Translations under genes and position numbers: made by a program
The notes under the pieces: model-generated
The model's input: the letters and a program-made list of their open reading frames with translations, nothing else
Told to the model about the DNA's origin: nothing
The model's database searches: none
Origin: a virus
Lineage: Duplodnaviria > Heunggongvirae > Uroviricota > Caudoviricetes
Direction: 5' to 3' (one strand)
Virus record (IMG/VR): IMGVR_UViG_2636415673_000004
Span: 1 to 48,566 of that record
DNA length: 48,566 bases
Shown: piece after piece, positions 16,463 through 41,298 of the stretch
Layout: every line of letters starts with the position of its first letter
Numbering within the stretch: the stretch's first letter is position 1

Positions 16463-17034
16463 CGCTTTATCACAATCCTCAGTTGTTGTTTCAGCGCATA
16501 GCCCAGTTCTTTTGGCAGACGTTCTCGCCGGATACGGTTAACGTTCTCATCAAAAGCCTGCTTCAGTGGGGCCGCCATCGGAATTTTCACCACCTGAATG
16601 GGAAGACGATTACGCTTTTTCCTTCCCTTATCGTCATTGCCCTTCGCATACCGGGCTTCTGGCAAACGTTGCATAACATGCCAGCGCCCATTATTTAATC
16701 GCTGGATGAATGCCCGCTGATAACGATGCTGACCGGCTTTGAGTATGCTGTTCGGACGATGACCAAGCATCCTGATCCCCAGCTTAATAGCAGGGAGATC
16801 ACCGCGGTTAACGATAATTTTTGCGTTCGGATTTCTTACCGTAGCCCGTTTCAGTCTGGATCGCTCTTTAACAAGTTTTCTCGGCACCCGGGTTTCACGG
16901 GCGACCTGAGACGAAGACTGATTAATCGCCGTTGTGGCCACGCGGTTAATGGCAATTGCTGACGCACCAGGCACCGCCGTTTTGCTGATACGGCTGAGGT
17001 TTTCAACAGCCTGCTCAAGACCTTTTATGGCCAT
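16459..17034 (-). CDS. Z: Tail completion protein Z (191 aa)
   Basis: MAIKGLEQAVENLSRISKTAVPGAS... matches lambda gpZ as recalled. Confidence 0.95.
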   Translation of the reverse strand: MAIKGLEQAVENLSRISKTAVPGASAIAINRVATTAINQSSSQVARETRVPRKLVKERSRLKRATVRNPNAKIIVNRGDLPAIKLGIRMLGHRPNSILKAGQHRYQRAFIQRLNNGRWHVMQRLPEARYAKGNDDKGRKKRNRLPIQVVKIPMAAPLKQAFDENVNRIRRERLPKELGYALKQQLRIVIKR

Positions 17035-35527: not shown

Positions 35528-36021
35528 TAAGCCCCCACGTAATTCCCTGACAGATACCACTCTTCACCCGATGCAGCGCGCTTGCTGCTTTTCCGTAAGC
35601 ACCGCTCACGACGCGCCAGAAAATTGTTTCGTTCTGGCTGGGAGTGGCTTTCACGGAATGCCGCCATCCACACGGTTGCAGCACGACGAAATAAGCCCCT
35701 GGACTCCAGTTCTTCAGCCTGGCGGGTCAGGCACAAAATCACCCGGGGATCGTTAGTGCCGACATAGAAATTGCGCACAGGTCTGGTTTCACGAACTGGT
35801 TGTGGTTCCGGCTCCTGCGCTCTCTCAGTCAGGCGCGGGAAATGTCTGCGTGTATCTCCTTCACAACGGTGAGCCACACGCCCGCTCTGACGTAACTTGC
35901 TTGCTGACTGCAGTACGCGCTGCCGTGAGTAACCTGCAAAAGCATCCGCAATGTCTCCGGAAGTACACCCCGGATGGGCTTCAATGAATTTCTGAACGTC
36001 ATTCAAAAGACTCATGCTCAC
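35527..36021 (-). CDS. Hypothetical protein with PerC-like C-terminal region (164 aa)
   Basis: ELESRGLFRRAATVWMAAF...ERNNFLARRERCL resembles the PerC/Pch motif (LExRGLWRRAA); N-terminal half unassigned. Confidence 0.4.
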   Translation of the reverse strand: MSMSLLNDVQKFIEAHPGCTSGDIADAFAGYSRQRVLQSASKLRQSGRVAHRCEGDTRRHFPRLTERAQEPEPQPVRETRPVRNFYVGTNDPRVILCLTRQAEELESRGLFRRAATVWMAAFRESHSQPERNNFLARRERCLRKSSKRAASGEEWYLSGNYVGA

Positions 36022-36959
36022 CCCCTGAATCCTGCCGGGATCTGGCTGTAGTCCACATTGTCGTAACTGGCTTTGAAGTACGGGTCTTCGCGTTTTTCTG
36101 TGTACGTGCTGATGGACGGCGATAAGCGCAGGGAAAGCTCATCCCATTTTTCCCGCAGCTTCGACGGGCTGAGCACGTTACGGCACCAGAACGGATCGCG
36201 GCTGATGCGGCTGTACATCTCGCAGATTTGTTTGTGAGTACGACCATCCTGCACACACATCAGGCGAATTTCGTTTGCCCAGGCTGTCCAGTTCGGTTCT
36301 TTGGGACGAACCACCTCGCCGTCACATTCGGCGGCCTGCTCGTACAGGGCGATGATTTTTTTCCAGAGCCACTGTGCGCAGGTCAAATCATCCTGCGTTC
36401 CCCACTGGCACTTTTTAGGGCTGAATACAACCGCATCAGGATGGCGAGTTAAAAAATCCTGTTCAGCCGTCTGCGTGTCCGGTTGCGAAACGTCCGGACG
36501 AGAAGGTTTTTTATCTGACGGATCATATTTTGATTTTACTGACGGATCCCCGCCAGATTCTGACGGGTGAAAACCCGCTTTTTTGCCAGATTTCGACGCA
36601 TCAAATTTTGACGGGTCAGATTTTGATGCGTCAGATTTTGACGGGTCAGAATCTGACAGTTGAGAAAATGCCGCGGCCTGAAGCTTCGCAACGTTAAGCT
36701 GATAAACATTCGACGCATTACGGTTACCCTGGCGACGCGCCTTACGCGTTAACCAGCCTTCTGCTTCCAGCCGTGCAATAGCCGTTCTGACGGTACTCAT
36801 CCCCGCGCCAATCTGGCGGGCAATGGTTTCAATCGATGGCCAGCACACACCTTCGTCATTACTGAAATCAGCCAGGCGGGCCATAATTGCCACACTGGAT
36901 AATTTCATGCCTGACGCTGCGCAACCATCCCATACATAGCCGGTTAATTTAGTGCTCAT
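36018..36959 (-). CDS. Replication initiation protein (N-terminal HTH, repeat-encoded linker, C-terminal helical domain), 313 aa
   Basis: HTH region (SIETIARQIGAGMSTVRTAIARLEAEGWL); the SDPSKSDASKSDPSKFDASKS linker is encoded by DNA iterons; sits in the O position after cro/cII-like genes. Confidence 0.6.
   Translation of the reverse strand: MSTKLTGYVWDGCAASGMKLSSVAIMARLADFSNDEGVCWPSIETIARQIGAGMSTVRTAIARLEAEGWLTRKARRQGNRNASNVYQLNVAKLQAAAFSQLSDSDPSKSDASKSDPSKFDASKSGKKAGFHPSESGGDPSVKSKYDPSDKKPSRPDVSQPDTQTAEQDFLTRHPDAVVFSPKKCQWGTQDDLTCAQWLWKKIIALYEQAAECDGEVVRPKEPNWTAWANEIRLMCVQDGRTHKQICEMYSRISRDPFWCRNVLSPSKLREKWDELSLRLSPSISTYTEKREDPYFKASYDNVDYSQIPAGFRG
36510..36665. repeat. Iteron array (candidate replication origin) inside the replication gene
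   Basis: About 8 copies of a TGACGG(G/A)T-centred 15-bp unit at 15-24 bp spacing (for example ttttgacgggtcaga twice). Confidence 0.55.
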
Positions 36960-36968
36960 GACCGACCT

Positions 36969-37307
36969 CTATTTCCCTGAATTTACGACGAAACTGTTCG
37001 AGCGGGCTGAAGCACTCATGCTCATAGCCTTCGCGGAGGTAGATAACCCGTTGTGTTTCCGGTTCCCAACGAATGACTCTGACGGGTACTCCGTAGTGAT
37101 CTTTGAACCAGCGGTTAACTTGTCGCAAAGGACTGTCTCCTTCTGCCGGTTGAAATCACCCACAGCCCACTCAGCAAAGCTGTGGGTTACAATTTCCCTG
37201 TCACCTGGTACATTTACTGCATAGCAATACTCCACCTTCGCTTTTCCACCCGGTACAGGAAGCGCAATCAGTTGCGAGCGACGGTAGTGTGTTGTTAAAC
37301 TGTTCAT
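36969..37307 (-). CDS. Hypothetical ORF coupled to the CII-like gene; possibly frame-disrupted
   Basis: ATG overlaps the upstream stop (ATGA); N-terminal half looks protein-like, C-terminal half is low-complexity while an alternative frame encodes a better sequence. Confidence 0.35.
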
Positions 37308-37918
37308 GCGTTAGTTTCTCCACAACCAGAAGCAATCGACGCCACGACGCCCGGAGCTGCACACTCGCGGGCGTCATTACTTTCTGAAACGCAAAAAATT
37401 TTGTAGACAAGTGCTGCATGCTCCTGCAGCTTCGAAATTGAGAGGTACAGCTCGTCGTTAATTGCTGTCTTCTCATGCGGTTCCACTACACCGTCTTCGA
37501 TTGCCGAACGAATCTGTTTTGAATAACTGCCGATCTGTTCAATGACTTCCAGTAAACGCTGGTTAATATCGGCATTGTCCACATCCTCGACGTCAGGAAG
37601 AGACACAAAGACGCCATTTGCAGACTGCGCCACAGCGTCAGCAATGAAGTGAGTGCCACCAGCACGTTGTAAAATCATTGCCCATCCCAGCGGGAAAATC
37701 TGATCGCCATCGGCACGAAGGCGGTTAAATAATGCGTTCTCTGTTACATCCAGCCAGTCAGCTGCTTCAGCGTAACCACCCGGCAACGCTGCGATAGTTT
37801 TTCTGACAGCTTTCACGTACCACTCAGGCTGTTTTTCTACTTTCCAGTGATACTTACCCACGGTTAGCCTCATCGTTCTGTGGTTTCTGTTAATCGATTT
37901 ATCCATTAGATTTTTCAT
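37304..37918 (-). CDS. CII-like/YdaT-like regulatory protein (about 204 aa); start uncertain (37918, 37906 or 37975)
   Basis: Follows cro; central region [21 protein letters not shown]...FPLGWAMIL resembles the lambda CII HTH region. Confidence 0.45.
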
Positions 37919-38099
37919 AAAGCTCAGGTTTAAATGGCAACCGTCCGCAAGTTCTATATGCTGCTTCTGCTGCACGTCCTTTTGGAATTAACTGGCCCGG
38001 ACGGTTTCGCCACTGATAAACGGCCTCAGTTGTTATGCCGAAAAAAGCAGCAACTTTCTCAATACTGCCGAAGTAGCTTTCGATATCGTCAGTTGTCAT
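37899..38099 (-). CDS. Cro-like repressor, DicC/YdaS family (66 aa)
   Basis: HTH SIEKVAAFFGITTEAVYQW and overall pattern similar to DicC as recalled; divergent from the CI-like gene; GGAGG RBS. Confidence 0.75.
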   Translation of the reverse strand: MTTDDIESYFGSIEKVAAFFGITTEAVYQWRNRPGQLIPKGRAAEAAYRTCGRLPFKPELYEKSNG

Positions 38100-38197
38100 A
38101 CGCCCTCCAAAACTAAGTTTTATTAGATGTTAATTATCAATCTATCTTAGGTCAATAAAAACTAAGATTACTTAGTAATTTAAGAAATGGTGCTCCT
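38100..38197. promoter_or_regulatory. Divergent immunity promoter/operator region between cro and cI
   Basis: Perfect 16-bp palindrome ACTAAGATTACTTAGT (38161-38176) plus further ACTAAG/CTTAG half-sites; minus-strand TTGACC, 17 nt, TAACAT as candidate PR. Confidence 0.55.
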
Positions 38198-38824
38198 ATG
38201 GAAACGGTTGGTCAGCGTATAAAAGCTCTGAGAAGGGTTACCAGAACGTCCCAGAAAGAATTGGGTAAATTTTGTGGGGTAAGTGACGTTGCTGTGGGGT
38301 ACTGGGAAAAAGACATCAATGTCCCTGGCGGGGAAGCACTTTCGAAATTAGCGAAGTTCTTTAATACGTCAATAGATTACATTCTTTATGGTGCTGAGTT
38401 TGAAGGCAAACTAGTCACAAACATGCGCAGAGTTCCTGTAATTTCGTGGGTTCAGGCTGGGCAGTTTACTGAGTGCAGGGCAGCAGAAGTGTTTAGTGAA
38501 GTGGACAAGTGGGTAGATACATCTTTAAAGATTGGTGATAACTCATTTGCATTAGAAGTTAAAGGCGACTCCATGACTAATCCTAATGGCCTCCCAACAA
38601 TACCAGAAGGTGCAACAGTGATTGTAGATCCTGATGCAGAACCTCGTCATGGAAAAATAGTCATTGCTCGACTTGATGGAACGAACGAAGCTACAGTAAA
38701 AAAATTAGTCATCGATGGTCCTCAAAAGTTTTTAGTGCCATTAAATCCACGGTATCCCAACATCCCAATCAATGGTAATTGCCTGATCATTGGTGTAGTC
38801 AAAGGAGTTCAATACGAACTCTAG
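38198..38824 (+). CDS. cI: CI-type prophage repressor (HTH-XRE plus S24 LexA-like autopeptidase), 208 aa
   Basis: N-terminal HTH (QKELGKFCGVSDVAVGYWEKD); C-terminal S24 motifs GDSM (Ser) and a downstream Lys (ATVKKL). Confidence 0.85.
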   Translation: METVGQRIKALRRVTRTSQKELGKFCGVSDVAVGYWEKDINVPGGEALSKLAKFFNTSIDYILYGAEFEGKLVTNMRRVPVISWVQAGQFTECRAAEVFSEVDKWVDTSLKIGDNSFALEVKGDSMTNPNGLPTIPEGATVIVDPDAEPRHGKIVIARLDGTNEATVKKLVIDGPQKFLVPLNPRYPNIPINGNCLIIGVVKGVQYEL

Positions 38825-38846
38825 TACCTCCCTTCTCTAACCAAGG

Positions 38847-38880
38847 CACCAAACTAAGAAAAGTTTGGTGTTTCCTCTTG
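38847..38880 (+). terminator. Candidate terminator downstream of cI
   Basis: CACCAAACT-aagaaa-AGTTTGGTG followed by TTTCCTCTT; AT-rich stem, so only moderate. Confidence 0.4.
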
Positions 38881-38988
38881 CCTTAAAAACTAAGTTAAGT
38901 TAGATTTAATATCAAAGATAACGAACAGGCAGGACGCCCACAAAGTAGCCTCCTGGGGCAAATGAAGTCCAGGATGATTCGTTAGCAA

Positions 38989-39012
38989 CAAAAAAGCGCC
39001 CTATAGGACGCT
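38989..39012 (-). terminator. Rho-independent terminator downstream of the 39055..39576 gene
   Basis: Minus-strand AGCGTCC-TATA-GGGCGCT followed by TTTTTT. Confidence 0.6.
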
Positions 39013-39054
39013 TCGATCTTTAACAATCTGGGTATCATCCAACCAATGCAAGAT

Positions 39055-39576
39055 TTAAGGAATCCAAGGCGAATTCAGATCTCGCCCCGACTCACGTAAT
39101 GATCTTGGTCGTTCGTACATCGGATTTTTTTCCATAAGAAATTTATTTTCACAGTGAAGGCAACGGCTTGTAAGAAAATGAGAAGTTTTACCTACTGGAA
39201 GCGGATGAAGTATCGATTTTATATTTTTGGAATAACAAAGTGGGCACAGATGCACAGTTATTTCTTTTCCACTCACAATTTCATTTTTAGAGTAAACAAA
39301 AGCACCAGAGTCAAGCTGATCAAGGACATATCCTTCTACCTTGGCACAAAAATCTTCAAACTCTGCAATTTTTGCTTTGAGATGCATCACCTCTTCATCA
39401 CGAAGGCGGATCGCATCGCCAAGAGAGAAGCATTCTGCCTGAAGCGTGATTAGTTTGTTCTGGAGTTCAATGGTTGCAGCTTTAACTTCTGCATCCGTTT
39501 TCGCGTCATTAATAACCTTAGCAAGACCGGCAGTCTCCTTTATAGCAGCCATAGCCGCAGACAGTTCAGCTATCAC
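39055..39576 (-). CDS. Hypothetical protein (173 aa; coiled-coil N-terminus, CxxC...CxxC C-terminus), antisense to cI and the early-left operon
   Basis: Non-repetitive ORF with its own terminator; CPLCYSK...CLHCENKF motif; start codon GTG (39576) or ATG (39552), both with weak RBS. Confidence 0.45.
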   Translation of the reverse strand: MIAELSAAMAAIKETAGLAKVINDAKTDAEVKAATIELQNKLITLQAECFSLGDAIRLRDEEVMHLKAKIAEFEDFCAKVEGYVLDQLDSGAFVYSKNEIVSGKEITVHLCPLCYSKNIKSILHPLPVGKTSHFLTSRCLHCENKFLMEKNPMYERPRSLRESGRDLNSPWIP

Positions 39577-40045
39577 GTTGAATACTCAGCTAGTTGTTGG
39601 GGGTATCCAGATTAACCAAATCCTTGTTGTTGGGGAATAACCAGGTCCACCTCGCCTGATGTGGCTAAAAGCAGGCACATAACAGCTAAGTATTTTCAAC
39701 CAGAGAGAATCCTTAGCGTTGTGGTGAATGCGGCTCAGCGCACGCGGGTTAAGGTTGAGGCTGACAGTCGACCTTCTGTGGATACCCACCCGTCTGGTGT
39801 GCAACCTTCGCCAGGCACCGGGAGGCACCCGGCACCACAACTTTATGCTGTGTGTAGTCCTGGCGGTACCAGTTTGTACCCTTGCTTCCGGCTGGTACCG
39901 TCCTTTTTACAAAACAGAGAAGAGCATCACCGGACGACGGGCTCATAACCCAATCCATCCGGGCGGCTGCCACCGCAGGTGTTCTTCTCTGTTTTGTGGA
40001 GAAACTAATCGGCCTTGCAGGGTCGATATGATGAGGAGCAGCAAA

Positions 40046-40408
40046 ATGGCTAGCGAACGCAGTACTGATGTGCAGGCATTTATCGGGGAGCTGGACGGCG
40101 GCGTATTTGAAACCAAAATCGGCGCAGTTCTCAGTGAAGTCGCTTCCGGTGTGATGAACACGAAAACCAAAGGTAAGGTCTCACTCAACCTGGAAATCGA
40201 ACCATTTGATGAGAACCGTGTGAAAATCAAACACAAACTCTCATATGTTCGCCCGACTAACCGCGGGAAAATTTCCGAAGAAGACACCACCGAAACGCCG
40301 ATGTATGTCAATCGCGGTGGTCGCCTGACTATTCTGCAGGAAGACCAGGGACAATTACTGACTCTTGCCGGTGAGCCTGACGGAAAATTACGCGCAGCAG
40401 GTCATTAA
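40046..40408 (+). CDS. YfdP-like hypothetical protein (120 aa)
   Basis: Strong RBS (GAGGAG, 7 nt, ATG at 40046); first gene of a YfdP/Q/R/S-like cluster. Confidence 0.6.
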   Translation: MASERSTDVQAFIGELDGGVFETKIGAVLSEVASGVMNTKTKGKVSLNLEIEPFDENRVKIKHKLSYVRPTNRGKISEEDTTETPMYVNRGGRLTILQEDQGQLLTLAGEPDGKLRAAGH

Positions 40409-40473
40409 TATCGTTCTTAATTAACTGATTATTTATCTCATCACTGAATATCTTTATATAGTGAGGACTTATT

Positions 40474-41298
40474 ATGTCTCAGAACTTAGACGCAACCGCA
40501 ATTAATCAAATCCATGCCCTTATTTCTGCTCAGGGTGTTAATGAAATTATCAGTAAGATTGGTGCCGATGCTGTGGCATTGCCTGAGAATTTCCGCATTC
40601 ATGATCTGGAAAAATTTAATTTAAATCGCTTCCGTTTCCGTGGTGCGCTTTCCACTGCCAGCATCGATGACTTTACCCGTTATTCTAAAGATCTTGCAGA
40701 TGAAGGCACCCGCTGCTTTATCGATGCCGATAATATGCGAGCCGTCAGTGTGCTTAACCTGGGTACTATTGGTGAACCAGGTCACGCAGATAACACCGCC
40801 ACACTCAAACTGAAAAAGACAGCACCGTTCTCTGCTCTGTTGTCTGTTAATGGCGAGCGTAACTCCCAGAAGTCACTGGCAGAATGGATTGAAGACTGGG
40901 CCGACTACCTTGTGGGCTTTGATGCTAATGGTGACGCTATTCAGGCAACAAAAGCGGCTGCGGCGGTCCGAAAAATCACGATTGAAGCAAACCAGACCGC
41001 TGATTTTGAAGATAATGACTTCAGCGGCAAACGCTCCCTGATGGAGTCTGTCGAAGCGAAGACCAAAGATATTATGCCAGTGGCATTTGAATTTAAATGC
41101 GTTCCGTTTGAAGGTCTGAAAGAACGTCCATTTAAATTACGCCTCAGCATTATCACTGGCGATCGTCCTGTACTGGTTCTGCGCATTATTCAGCTGGAAG
41201 CAGTGCAGGAAGAAATGGCTAACGAATTTCGTGATCTGCTTGTTGAGAAATTCAAAGACAGCAAAGTAGAAACCTTTATTGGTACTTTCACCGCCTGA
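40474..41298 (+). CDS. yfdQ: YfdQ-like (DUF2303-family) protein (274 aa)
   Basis: Same length as K-12 CPS-53 YfdQ and in the same neighbourhood as YfdR/YfdS-like genes; GTGAGGA RBS. Confidence 0.6.

Follow-up and report, generated by a model that had tools for sequence, protein, structure and literature searches.

Predicted operators of a P22-type lambdoid immunity switch in an SfV/e14-like Escherichia coli prophage

In the immC region of phage P22, the repressor gene and cro are divergent, as they are in the locus described here. In known lambdoid switches Cro shares the operators of cI, and the C-terminal domain of lambda cI mediates both pairwise cooperativity and looping through octamers. 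Phages SfV and e14 (ymfK/cohE-ymfT/croE), which belong to the same prophage family as the present locus, have the gene order ymfL, cro, cI, PL leader and yfdP/Q. In the SfV record, the stretch separating cI from cro is marked as a putative operator region and a terminator is marked after cI; the SfV and e14 records carry no annotation of OL or PL.

Here, we have analysed a stretch of 48,566 nucleotides (IMG/VR record IMGVR_UViG_2636415673_000004), hereafter the window, and compared its immunity region with those of related and heteroimmune phages. For the cI allele found here, the operator consensus, the three switch promoters and the cI terminator are unannotated in the records examined, and we found no operator, binding, transcription-start or expression study of it in the searchable literature. 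Our analysis suggests that an SfV/e14-like prophage of E. coli carries here a lambdoid immunity switch of P22 type, and that the ACTAAG repeats around cI are very probably its operators.

The immunity module and its repressor

Over its 2.4 kb, the immunity region matches an E. coli chromosome at 100% identity, and 155 of 5,426 complete E. coli genomes contain at least 80% of it. Phages 569R4, mEp460, SfIV, SfV and e14 match it in part, and the genes of the matching phages go by the names cI/ymfK, cro/ymfT and ymfL. The region represents the immunity module of a prophage of E. coli that is SfV/e14-like. The cI repressor gene (38198..38824, plus strand) encodes 208 residues with the Pfam domains HTH_3 and Peptidase_S24. 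A cro-like gene of 66 residues on the minus strand (37899..38099; Pfam P22_Cro, PF14549, E = 4.4e-11), annotated in relatives as a Cro/CI family regulator or as ymfT, opens the PR operon; next come a YmfL/CII-like ORF and an O-like replication gene. As is characteristic of lambdoid phages, the locus pairs cro with a divergent cI-type repressor that combines a helix-turn-helix domain with an S24 domain bearing the Ala-Gly site and the Ser/Lys dyad.

The two halves of cI resemble different repressors. Its N-terminal 65 residues align with the DNA-binding domain of P22 C2 (1adr, 2r1j; E = 6e-11), and residues 75-205 align with the C-terminal domain of lambda cI (2ho0; E = 7e-28). The recognition helix reads GVSDVAVGYWE, compared with GVSNVAISQWE in P22 C2, a difference that would fit a related but distinct half-site. 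The alignment with lambda cI shows the equivalents Ala87-Gly88 (VQAG), Ser125 (GDSM) and Lys168 (VKKL). Residues D197, F202 and Y210 of lambda cI, which we take to be cooperativity residues, have conserved equivalents in this cI, whereas R196, S198 and M212 do not. Since the C-terminal domain is lambda cI-like, a loop that joins OL to OR across some 0.75 kb is plausible by analogy.

Predicted operators and promoters on both sides of cI

A preliminary description of the locus had noted recurrent ACTAAG half-sites and likened them to OR/OL operator sets on both sides of cI. The hexamer or its complement is found at 38112-38117, 38161-38166, 38853-38858 and 38889-38894 on the plus strand and at 38171-38176 on the minus strand, and a CTTAG lies at 38146-38150. 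The motifs first noted are thus real, although two of them had been placed one base off, at 38145 and 38888 rather than 38146 and 38889. The 16-mer at 38161-38176 had been called a perfect palindrome; its 6-bp inverted arms are perfect, but the ATTA centre is not self-complementary and so the 16-mer as a whole is not.

When the motif frequency is compared with the whole window, as had been proposed, ACTAAG is not enriched (10 copies found against 12.8 ± 3.4 expected), but its clustering around cI is strong. Five of the ten copies flank cI and lie within 783 bp of sequence (P = 6.5e-5 for uniform placement; P = 2.5e-4 against a Markov null of the local AT-rich sequence). The signal is therefore in the clustering, together with a 14-bp core, and not in the window-wide count of the hexamer.

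This core emerged from comparison of 80 close relatives, in which cI is about 99-100% identical, and of distant relatives from Enterobacter, Kosakonia, Kluyvera, Serratia, Rahnella, Yersinia, Rouxiella, Providencia and Proteus, in which cI is 63-90% identical. What is conserved across relatives is CTAA-N6-TTAG (equivalently CTAAG-N4-xTTAG) rather than ACTAAG. The exact core occurs three times in 48.5 kb, at 38113-38126, 38162-38175 and 38890-38903, and all three copies flank cI; the expectation is 0.35, and three copies were reached in one of 100 shuffles. With a weight matrix derived solely from relatives outside E. coli (29 distinct sites), the matches at 38889, 38112 and 38161 score 24.4, 23.2 and 22.9 bits. 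They lead by more than 12 bits over the next-best match elsewhere in the window (10.9 bits), and Markov-shuffled windows gave a mean maximum of 12.4 bits and a highest score of 20.5 bits. The motifs at 38853 (about 10 bits, core 7/8) and at 38136/38146 (5.8 bits, core 6/8) are weak. A core with one mismatch inside cI (38542) and a match at 1697 were set aside as chance, matches with at most one mismatch numbering 8 against about 12 expected.

Two of the strong sites and one of the weak sites lie between cI and cro. The predicted operator OR1 (O-a; 38113..38126, CTAAGTTTTATTAG) has the exact core and scores 23.2 bits. It adjoins the -10 hexamer of PR on the downstream side and covers the predicted PR start. 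PR, called by the promoter scan on the minus strand (38127..38155), has the -35 hexamer TTGACC (38155..38150), a 17-nt spacer and the -10 hexamer TAACAT (38132..38127). Read on the plus strand, its -35 hexamer GGTCAA is kept in most relatives, with GATCAA, TATCAA and AGTCAA also found, and the -10 hexamer is TAATAT in most other genera. Of 17 aligned sequences, 16 have the complete OR1 core (8/8) and the remaining one, from Proteus, has 7/8 of it; among the 80 close relatives OR1 varies at the tenth base only (A or G).

The predicted operator OR3 (O-c; 38162..38175, CTAAGATTACTTAG) likewise has the exact core, scores 22.9 bits, is invariant in all 80 close relatives and keeps 7-8/8 of the core across genera. 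A candidate PRM -10 hexamer, TAAGAT (38164-38169, plus strand), lies inside OR3 and is invariant in all relatives; no -35 hexamer of PRM was recognisable. Midway is a degenerate putative operator, OR2 (O-b; 38137..38150, TCAATCTATCTTAG), which sits in the PR spacer, touches the -35 hexamer and retains 6/8 of the core. Each of the 17 aligned sequences keeps 5-8/8 of the core in the OR2 column, where that of Rahnella is perfect, against only 10.6% of background 14-mers that reach at least 5/8; its CTTAG at 38146 reads CTTTG in most relatives. The three centres (38119.5, 38143.5 and 38168.5) are spaced by 24 and 25 bp. The spacer between cI and cro thus contains several pseudo-palindromes of one consensus about two helical turns apart, the outer two strong and the central one weak. 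Taken purely as sequences, OR2 and the OL2-like site described below match no better than chance, and the basis for naming them is position and conservation only.

On the other side of cI, the third strong site, OL1 (38890..38903, CTAAGTTAAGTTAG), is an exact core and the best weight-matrix match of the window (24.4 bits). It had been stated that the downstream motif pair is not next to an obvious leftward promoter, but OL1 lies inside TTGCCT-17-TAGATT, an arrangement kept in relatives. This predicted PL (38878..38906, plus strand) has its -35 hexamer at 38878-38883, its -10 hexamer at 38901-38906 and a start at about 38912-38914, and OL1 spans the spacer and the first three bases of the -10 hexamer. 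The promoter scan did not call PL in the window because its hexamers match at 8/12 positions (4/6 each) and the threshold was 9/12; PL was read from the sequence and then established through relatives and P22. The spacer of 17 nt and the -10 hexamer TAGATT are found in all 80 close relatives, with the -35 hexamers TTGCCA (65), TTGCCT (7), TTGTCA (5) and TTGCTA (3). Across genera, the -35 hexamer is TTGACC in six of the seven relatives aligned there and TTGAAT in Serratia Ag1, and four further genera have TTGACA or TTGACG. Sites of one consensus are thus present at a second, distal early promoter, where OL1 represents them, and the predicted operators overlap the -35, the -10 or the start of PR, PRM and PL, these promoters being consensus matches only.

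The remaining copy, at 38853, lies in a hairpin after cI (38847..38879, plus strand) with the stem CACCAAAC / GTTTGGTG and the loop TAAGAAAA, followed by TTTCCTCTT. Its predicted RNA fold has -14.7 kcal/mol (z = -3.0) and is conserved across genera, and the hairpin is likely to be the cI terminator. The OL2-like site within it (38854..38867, CTAAGAAAAGTTTG), which takes in the ACTAAG at 38853, has 7/8 of the core and lies 36 bp upstream of OL1. We rejected it as a strong operator, given its place in the terminator hairpin, its score of about 10 bits and its variability: CTAAG is changed to CCAAG in five of the 80 close relatives, and GCTAAG is also found among relatives. In the Yersinia, Providencia and Proteus relatives, a site with the full core lies 33-34 bp from OL1. 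It is possible that the 38854 site is an OL2, at best a weak one.

These weaknesses on the downstream side could be taken to mean that only the sites between cI and cro are operators, and that the copies at 38853 and 38889 have no regulatory role and are by-products of AT-rich sequence, the terminator hairpin or an old duplication. Such an account would accommodate the 38853 copy, which is mutable, lies in a stem-loop and scores within the null range, as well as the weak PL hexamers missed by the scan. The first ORF past PL (39055-39576) also speaks for it, being on the strand opposite to PL, so that transcription from PL would have to run antisense through it. The account is very unlikely in view of the site at 38890-38903 itself. 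It is invariant in all 80 close relatives within a fixed 17-nt frame of -35 and -10, whereas the 6-nt stretches that border the promoter-operator block occur in 10 and 6 versions, and it is identical in Enterobacter, Kosakonia, Kluyvera, Rahnella and Serratia Ag1, beside TTGACC in the first four and TTGAAT in the last. Heteroimmune phages carry their own OR-type repeat in its place, and P22 has annotated OL1-3 and PL at the same position relative to c2. In E. coli, the sequence beyond OR1 resembles that beyond OL1; since this similarity is absent in other genera, we did not take it as a sign of a duplicated promoter.

Conservation and exchange of the repeats both favour operators. The cores of OR1, OR3 and OL1 are kept at 7-8/8 across all nine distant genera while their flanks vary. 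In most relatives the sites are offset from the cI start by -86/-87 and -37/-38, and the offset from the cI stop is fixed too. The cI proteins of SfV, e14 and PhiR29 have an unrelated N-terminal domain, which gives no alignment here. These phages have TGTACC..GGTACA-type repeats in the spacer between cI and cro, and the same repeat recurs by a TTGACA between the cI terminator and a leader that they share with the window. A third allele, of XRE type (strain 23AR0922), has TTGCR..YGCAA repeats at both positions. Because each of the three immunity types carries its own repeat there, the repeat type swaps with the repressor at both positions, so that the co-variation is alike on the two sides of cI. 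OR and OL would be expected to be exchanged jointly in this way.

A related question is whether the sites serve mainly Cro, or another prophage regulator, rather than cI. What is observed directly are the sites with their statistics and conservation, the promoter-like hexamers, the homologies of the proteins and the way in which the sites co-vary with repressor type. Sequence analysis by itself does not identify the binding protein, and the divergent gene does encode a P22_Cro-family protein. Against a role mainly for such a protein, the AAG-N4-CTT geometry and the resemblance of CTAAG to the TTAAG of P22 fit a cI whose N-terminal domain is P22 C2-like, and the motif changes with the cI/cro cassette. 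That the sites serve mainly a protein other than cI is, in our view, highly improbable. To our knowledge, cI and Cro use the same sites in every lambdoid phage studied, and a role for Cro is thus more a complement to cI operators than a rival.

An unrelated regulator that recognises CTAAG could also be invoked, such as the C protein of a restriction-modification system. The C-box of C.Csp231I is CTAAG-n5-CTTAG, and its binder is also a small helix-turn-helix regulator (PMC9638921); its pentamer half-sites are identical to those found here. It differs in its context, which is a restriction-modification control promoter, and its regulator has no S24 domain. Its spacer is n5, and all three strong sites have a spacer of 4 nt, which led us to reject a C-box of this type. 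We noticed no C-protein or restriction-modification genes in the ORF listing for 36000-41000, and the sites coincide precisely with the switch promoters and change together with cI, leaving this possibility hardly credible.

We argue, then, for operators of cI, graded by sequence into the probably strong OR1, OR3 and OL1 and the weak OR2 and possible OL2. The predicted OR and OL sets of the preliminary description are strongly supported by footprinting across relatives, by the heteroimmune swap and by the match to P22, except that the motifs at 38853 and 38146 are weak or degenerate.

We propose a possible working of the switch, in which binding, relative affinities, transcription starts, cooperativity and any OL-OR loop are inferred. 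Dimers of cI would bind pseudo-palindromes of 14-18 bp with the core CTAA-N6-TTAG, and the cro product would probably bind the same sites. Occupation of OR1 and OR2 would turn off cro and the early-right operon, the binding to OR2 probably depending on cooperativity with OR1. OR3, lying over the PRM -10 hexamer, could mediate negative autoregulation by cI and allow Cro to shut off cI, and cI at OL1 would repress PL and the early-left operon. RecA-stimulated self-cleavage at Ala87-Gly88 would lead to prophage induction.

The cI allele thereby gains an operator consensus, CTAA-N6-TTAG, three predicted switch promoters and a terminator, and a further immunity specificity would be defined within the P22 C2 structural class. 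The change from TTAAG to CTAAG, together with four changes in the recognition helix, could be useful for specificity studies and as a source of orthogonal repressor-operator parts, and the induction circuit of the prophage is now directly testable. The general understanding of lysogeny switches is unchanged.

A structured leader RNA downstream of PL

Transcripts from PL would begin with a predicted structured leader (38920..38983, plus strand). Its stem P1 pairs 38920-38925 with 38978-38983 and encloses a small invariant hairpin (38928-38930 / 38936-38938) and P2, a stem of 5 bp (38952-38956 / 38969-38973) capped by a conserved loop of 12 nt. The leader is kept downstream of PL in the heteroimmune phages and prophages SfV, SfII, SfIV, e14, PhiR29, ST64B, phiNP, mEp237, Yersinia YeP1-3 and Pantoea AH07, and is also found in Photorhabdus and Xenorhabdus prophages. 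Pectobacterium ZF40 matches the conserved 5' part of the leader over 29 nt, or 34% of the query. Under the leader match, 35 of 43 phage records have no feature or no annotation, and the other eight have only 'hypothetical protein'.

Pairing is supported by covariation. Paired cells make up 95.5% of the total, compared with at most 44% in slid controls, and 42 cells show double changes; the observed score was reached in none of 500 shuffles. P2 varies among AU, GC, UA and CG, and one pair of P1 among AU, UA and GC. RNAalifold proposed another closing stem (columns 27-30 with 65-68), which is uninformative because it is invariant; we set it aside in favour of P1 (columns 6-11 with 65-70), with its AU/UA/GC covariation. 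The leader matched no family in Rfam, and a search of the window with its covariance model gave a single copy. Nor is it, by this search, the put element of HK022, for which homology to putL/putR and a copy after each of PL and PR would be expected: the model has no match in the HK022 immunity region. Rfam contains no put family for comparison. A 12-mer at 39015-39026 that resembles rrn boxA is not statistically enriched in the window. The leader RNA is covarying and unannotated, and is more unusual than the operator finding.

Farther downstream, a terminator-like hairpin (39864-39907) precedes the yfdP-like gene. Given this hairpin, and since SfV-type phages are reported to have no N homologue (PMC3851460), a role of the leader in antitermination is conceivable, though a guess. 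A doubtful extension of the switch would make the OL side a composite unit, formed by a weak OL2 in the cI terminator DNA and a new cis-acting leader RNA for processive antitermination, shared by the heteroimmune SfV, ST64B, e14 and phiNP-type phages. If this were the case, one sequence would act twice, encoding the RNA terminator of cI and providing a DNA site that aids the lambda-like C-terminal domain of cI in bridging OL and OR over about 0.75 kb, and the leader RNA would work like HK022 put while being unrelated to it.

Comparison with known systems

Within its own prophage family, the locus differs from SfV and e14 in the N-terminal domain of cI and in having CTAAG-type rather than TGTACC-type repeats. 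It resembles lambda in its tripartite OR, in a spacing of 23-24 bp, in the logic of a weak middle site and in the homologous C-terminal domain of cI (E = 7e-28). Unlike lambda, it has a single strong OL site and a distance of about 0.75 kb between OL and OR, compared with 2.4 kb, and the DNA-binding domain of its cI is not lambda-like.

The closest counterpart is P22, whose repressor has a homologous helix-turn-helix domain. In both systems OR1 lies downstream of the PR -10 hexamer and OR2 in the PR spacer, and the OR centres are spaced by 23 and 25 bp in P22 and by 24 and 25 bp here; PR is TTGACT ... GATAAT in P22 and TTGACC-17-TAACAT here. The PRM -10 hexamer TAAGAT lies within OR3 in P22 and the window alike, and the annotated PRM region of P22 ends at this TAAGAT, 6 nt before the annotated RM transcript start. 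OL and PL follow directly downstream of the repressor gene in both, with no rex-type genes between. The PL of P22, TTGACC-17-TAAATT, has OL1 in the spacer and -10, the same place as here, and OL1 and OL2 are 35 bp apart in P22 and 36 bp here.

There are also differences. OL has three annotated sites in P22, as against one strong site and a degenerate one in the cI terminator here. PL of P22 is followed by nutL and gene 24 (N), neither of which is found here, where a different, structured leader RNA takes their place. The operators are TTAAG-N4-CTTAA in P22 and CTAAG-N4-xTTAG here, and share the AAG-N4-CTT centre and the 18-bp class. The recognition helices differ at four positions (D30, V33, G34 and Y35 here; N, I, S and Q in P22), and the two repressors should therefore be heteroimmune. 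We rejected membership in the specificity class of P22 C2, that is, the same immunity, on this difference in the helix and on the half-site ACTAAG, which is ATTTAAG/TTAAG in P22. Since the layout is almost exactly as in P22, the locus appears to be an ordinary, previously unannotated lysogeny switch, which by its sequence would share the architecture of P22 but have a different specificity.

RNA element in the predicted PL leader

Downstream of PL, the predicted plus-strand promoter past the repressor gene cI, the predicted leader contains an RNA element (38920-38983, +) that is structured and shows covariation. The element is kept in the heteroimmune phages SfV, e14, ST64B and phiNP-type phages and in several genera. 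Among 43 phage records, 35 list no annotation under it or are unannotated, and the remaining eight carry only 'hypothetical protein'. Rfam holds no family for the element, and it is not an HK022 put site as judged by a covariance-model search.

A hairpin at 38993-39014 acts as an intrinsic terminator of a minus-strand ORF (39055-39576) and is directly followed by a boxA-like 12-mer, GATCTTTAACAA (39015-39026, +). The core consensus of rrn boxA is GCTCTTTAACAA, and comparison with this consensus gives one mismatch. PhiR29 has a perfect boxA-like 12-mer at the equivalent place, and a second copy in the window, at 16863-16874, is also a perfect match; statistical enrichment of the motif within the window was not found.

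Variable ground between PL and the early-left genes

The minus-strand ORF is a reverse-oriented insert of 173 aa between PL and the early-left genes. It has CxxC...CxxC motifs close to its C-terminus, and a Pfam search returned no significant match. Since different genes fill this slot in 569R4, PhiR29, SfV and e14, the insert seems to occupy a variable 'moron' position. In two Enterobacter relatives (L003, L019), the counterpart of 39640-39690 lies almost directly after PL, so that these loci lack both the leader and the minus-strand gene.

Further downstream, 39688-39910 (+) gave a match to the sRNA family STnc100 (RF02076) at 41.2 bits (E 1e-6), which is below the Rfam gathering score of 47. 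The stretch ends in a long hairpin with a T-run (39864-39907), shortly upstream of a yfdP-like ORF (about 40046-40408).

Candidate replication origin

At 36587-36661, within the O-like gene (36018-36959, -), iterons resembling CAGATTTTGACGGGT recur four to five times with a 15-bp period and contain nested inverted repeats. This stretch is probably a replication origin within the initiator gene, an arrangement that would resemble that of lambda. An Rfam match to mir-5880 from the same region was judged spurious.

Predicted operators in relatives and a restriction-modification C-box

In related loci from Yersinia, Providencia and Proteus (L012, L016, L017, L018), two to three full-core operators lie 18-90 nt past the cI stop, around a TTGACA -35 element; in the Proteus relative, one of them is downstream of the -10. 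The lineage of E. coli and Enterobacter has a terminator hairpin at the position of OL2, the candidate weak operator. Because of these full-core operators around the -35, the predicted OL is fuller in the four loci than in that lineage.

The C-box of the C.Csp231I restriction-modification system is CTAAG-n5-CTTAG (PMC9638921). It shares identical half-sites with the predicted operators in 38113-38175 and 38890-38903, but has a spacer of 5 nt where theirs is 4 nt. Cross-talk between the C.Csp231I C protein and the repressor region of the Rac prophage is known, so similar cross-talk with the present prophage is conceivable.
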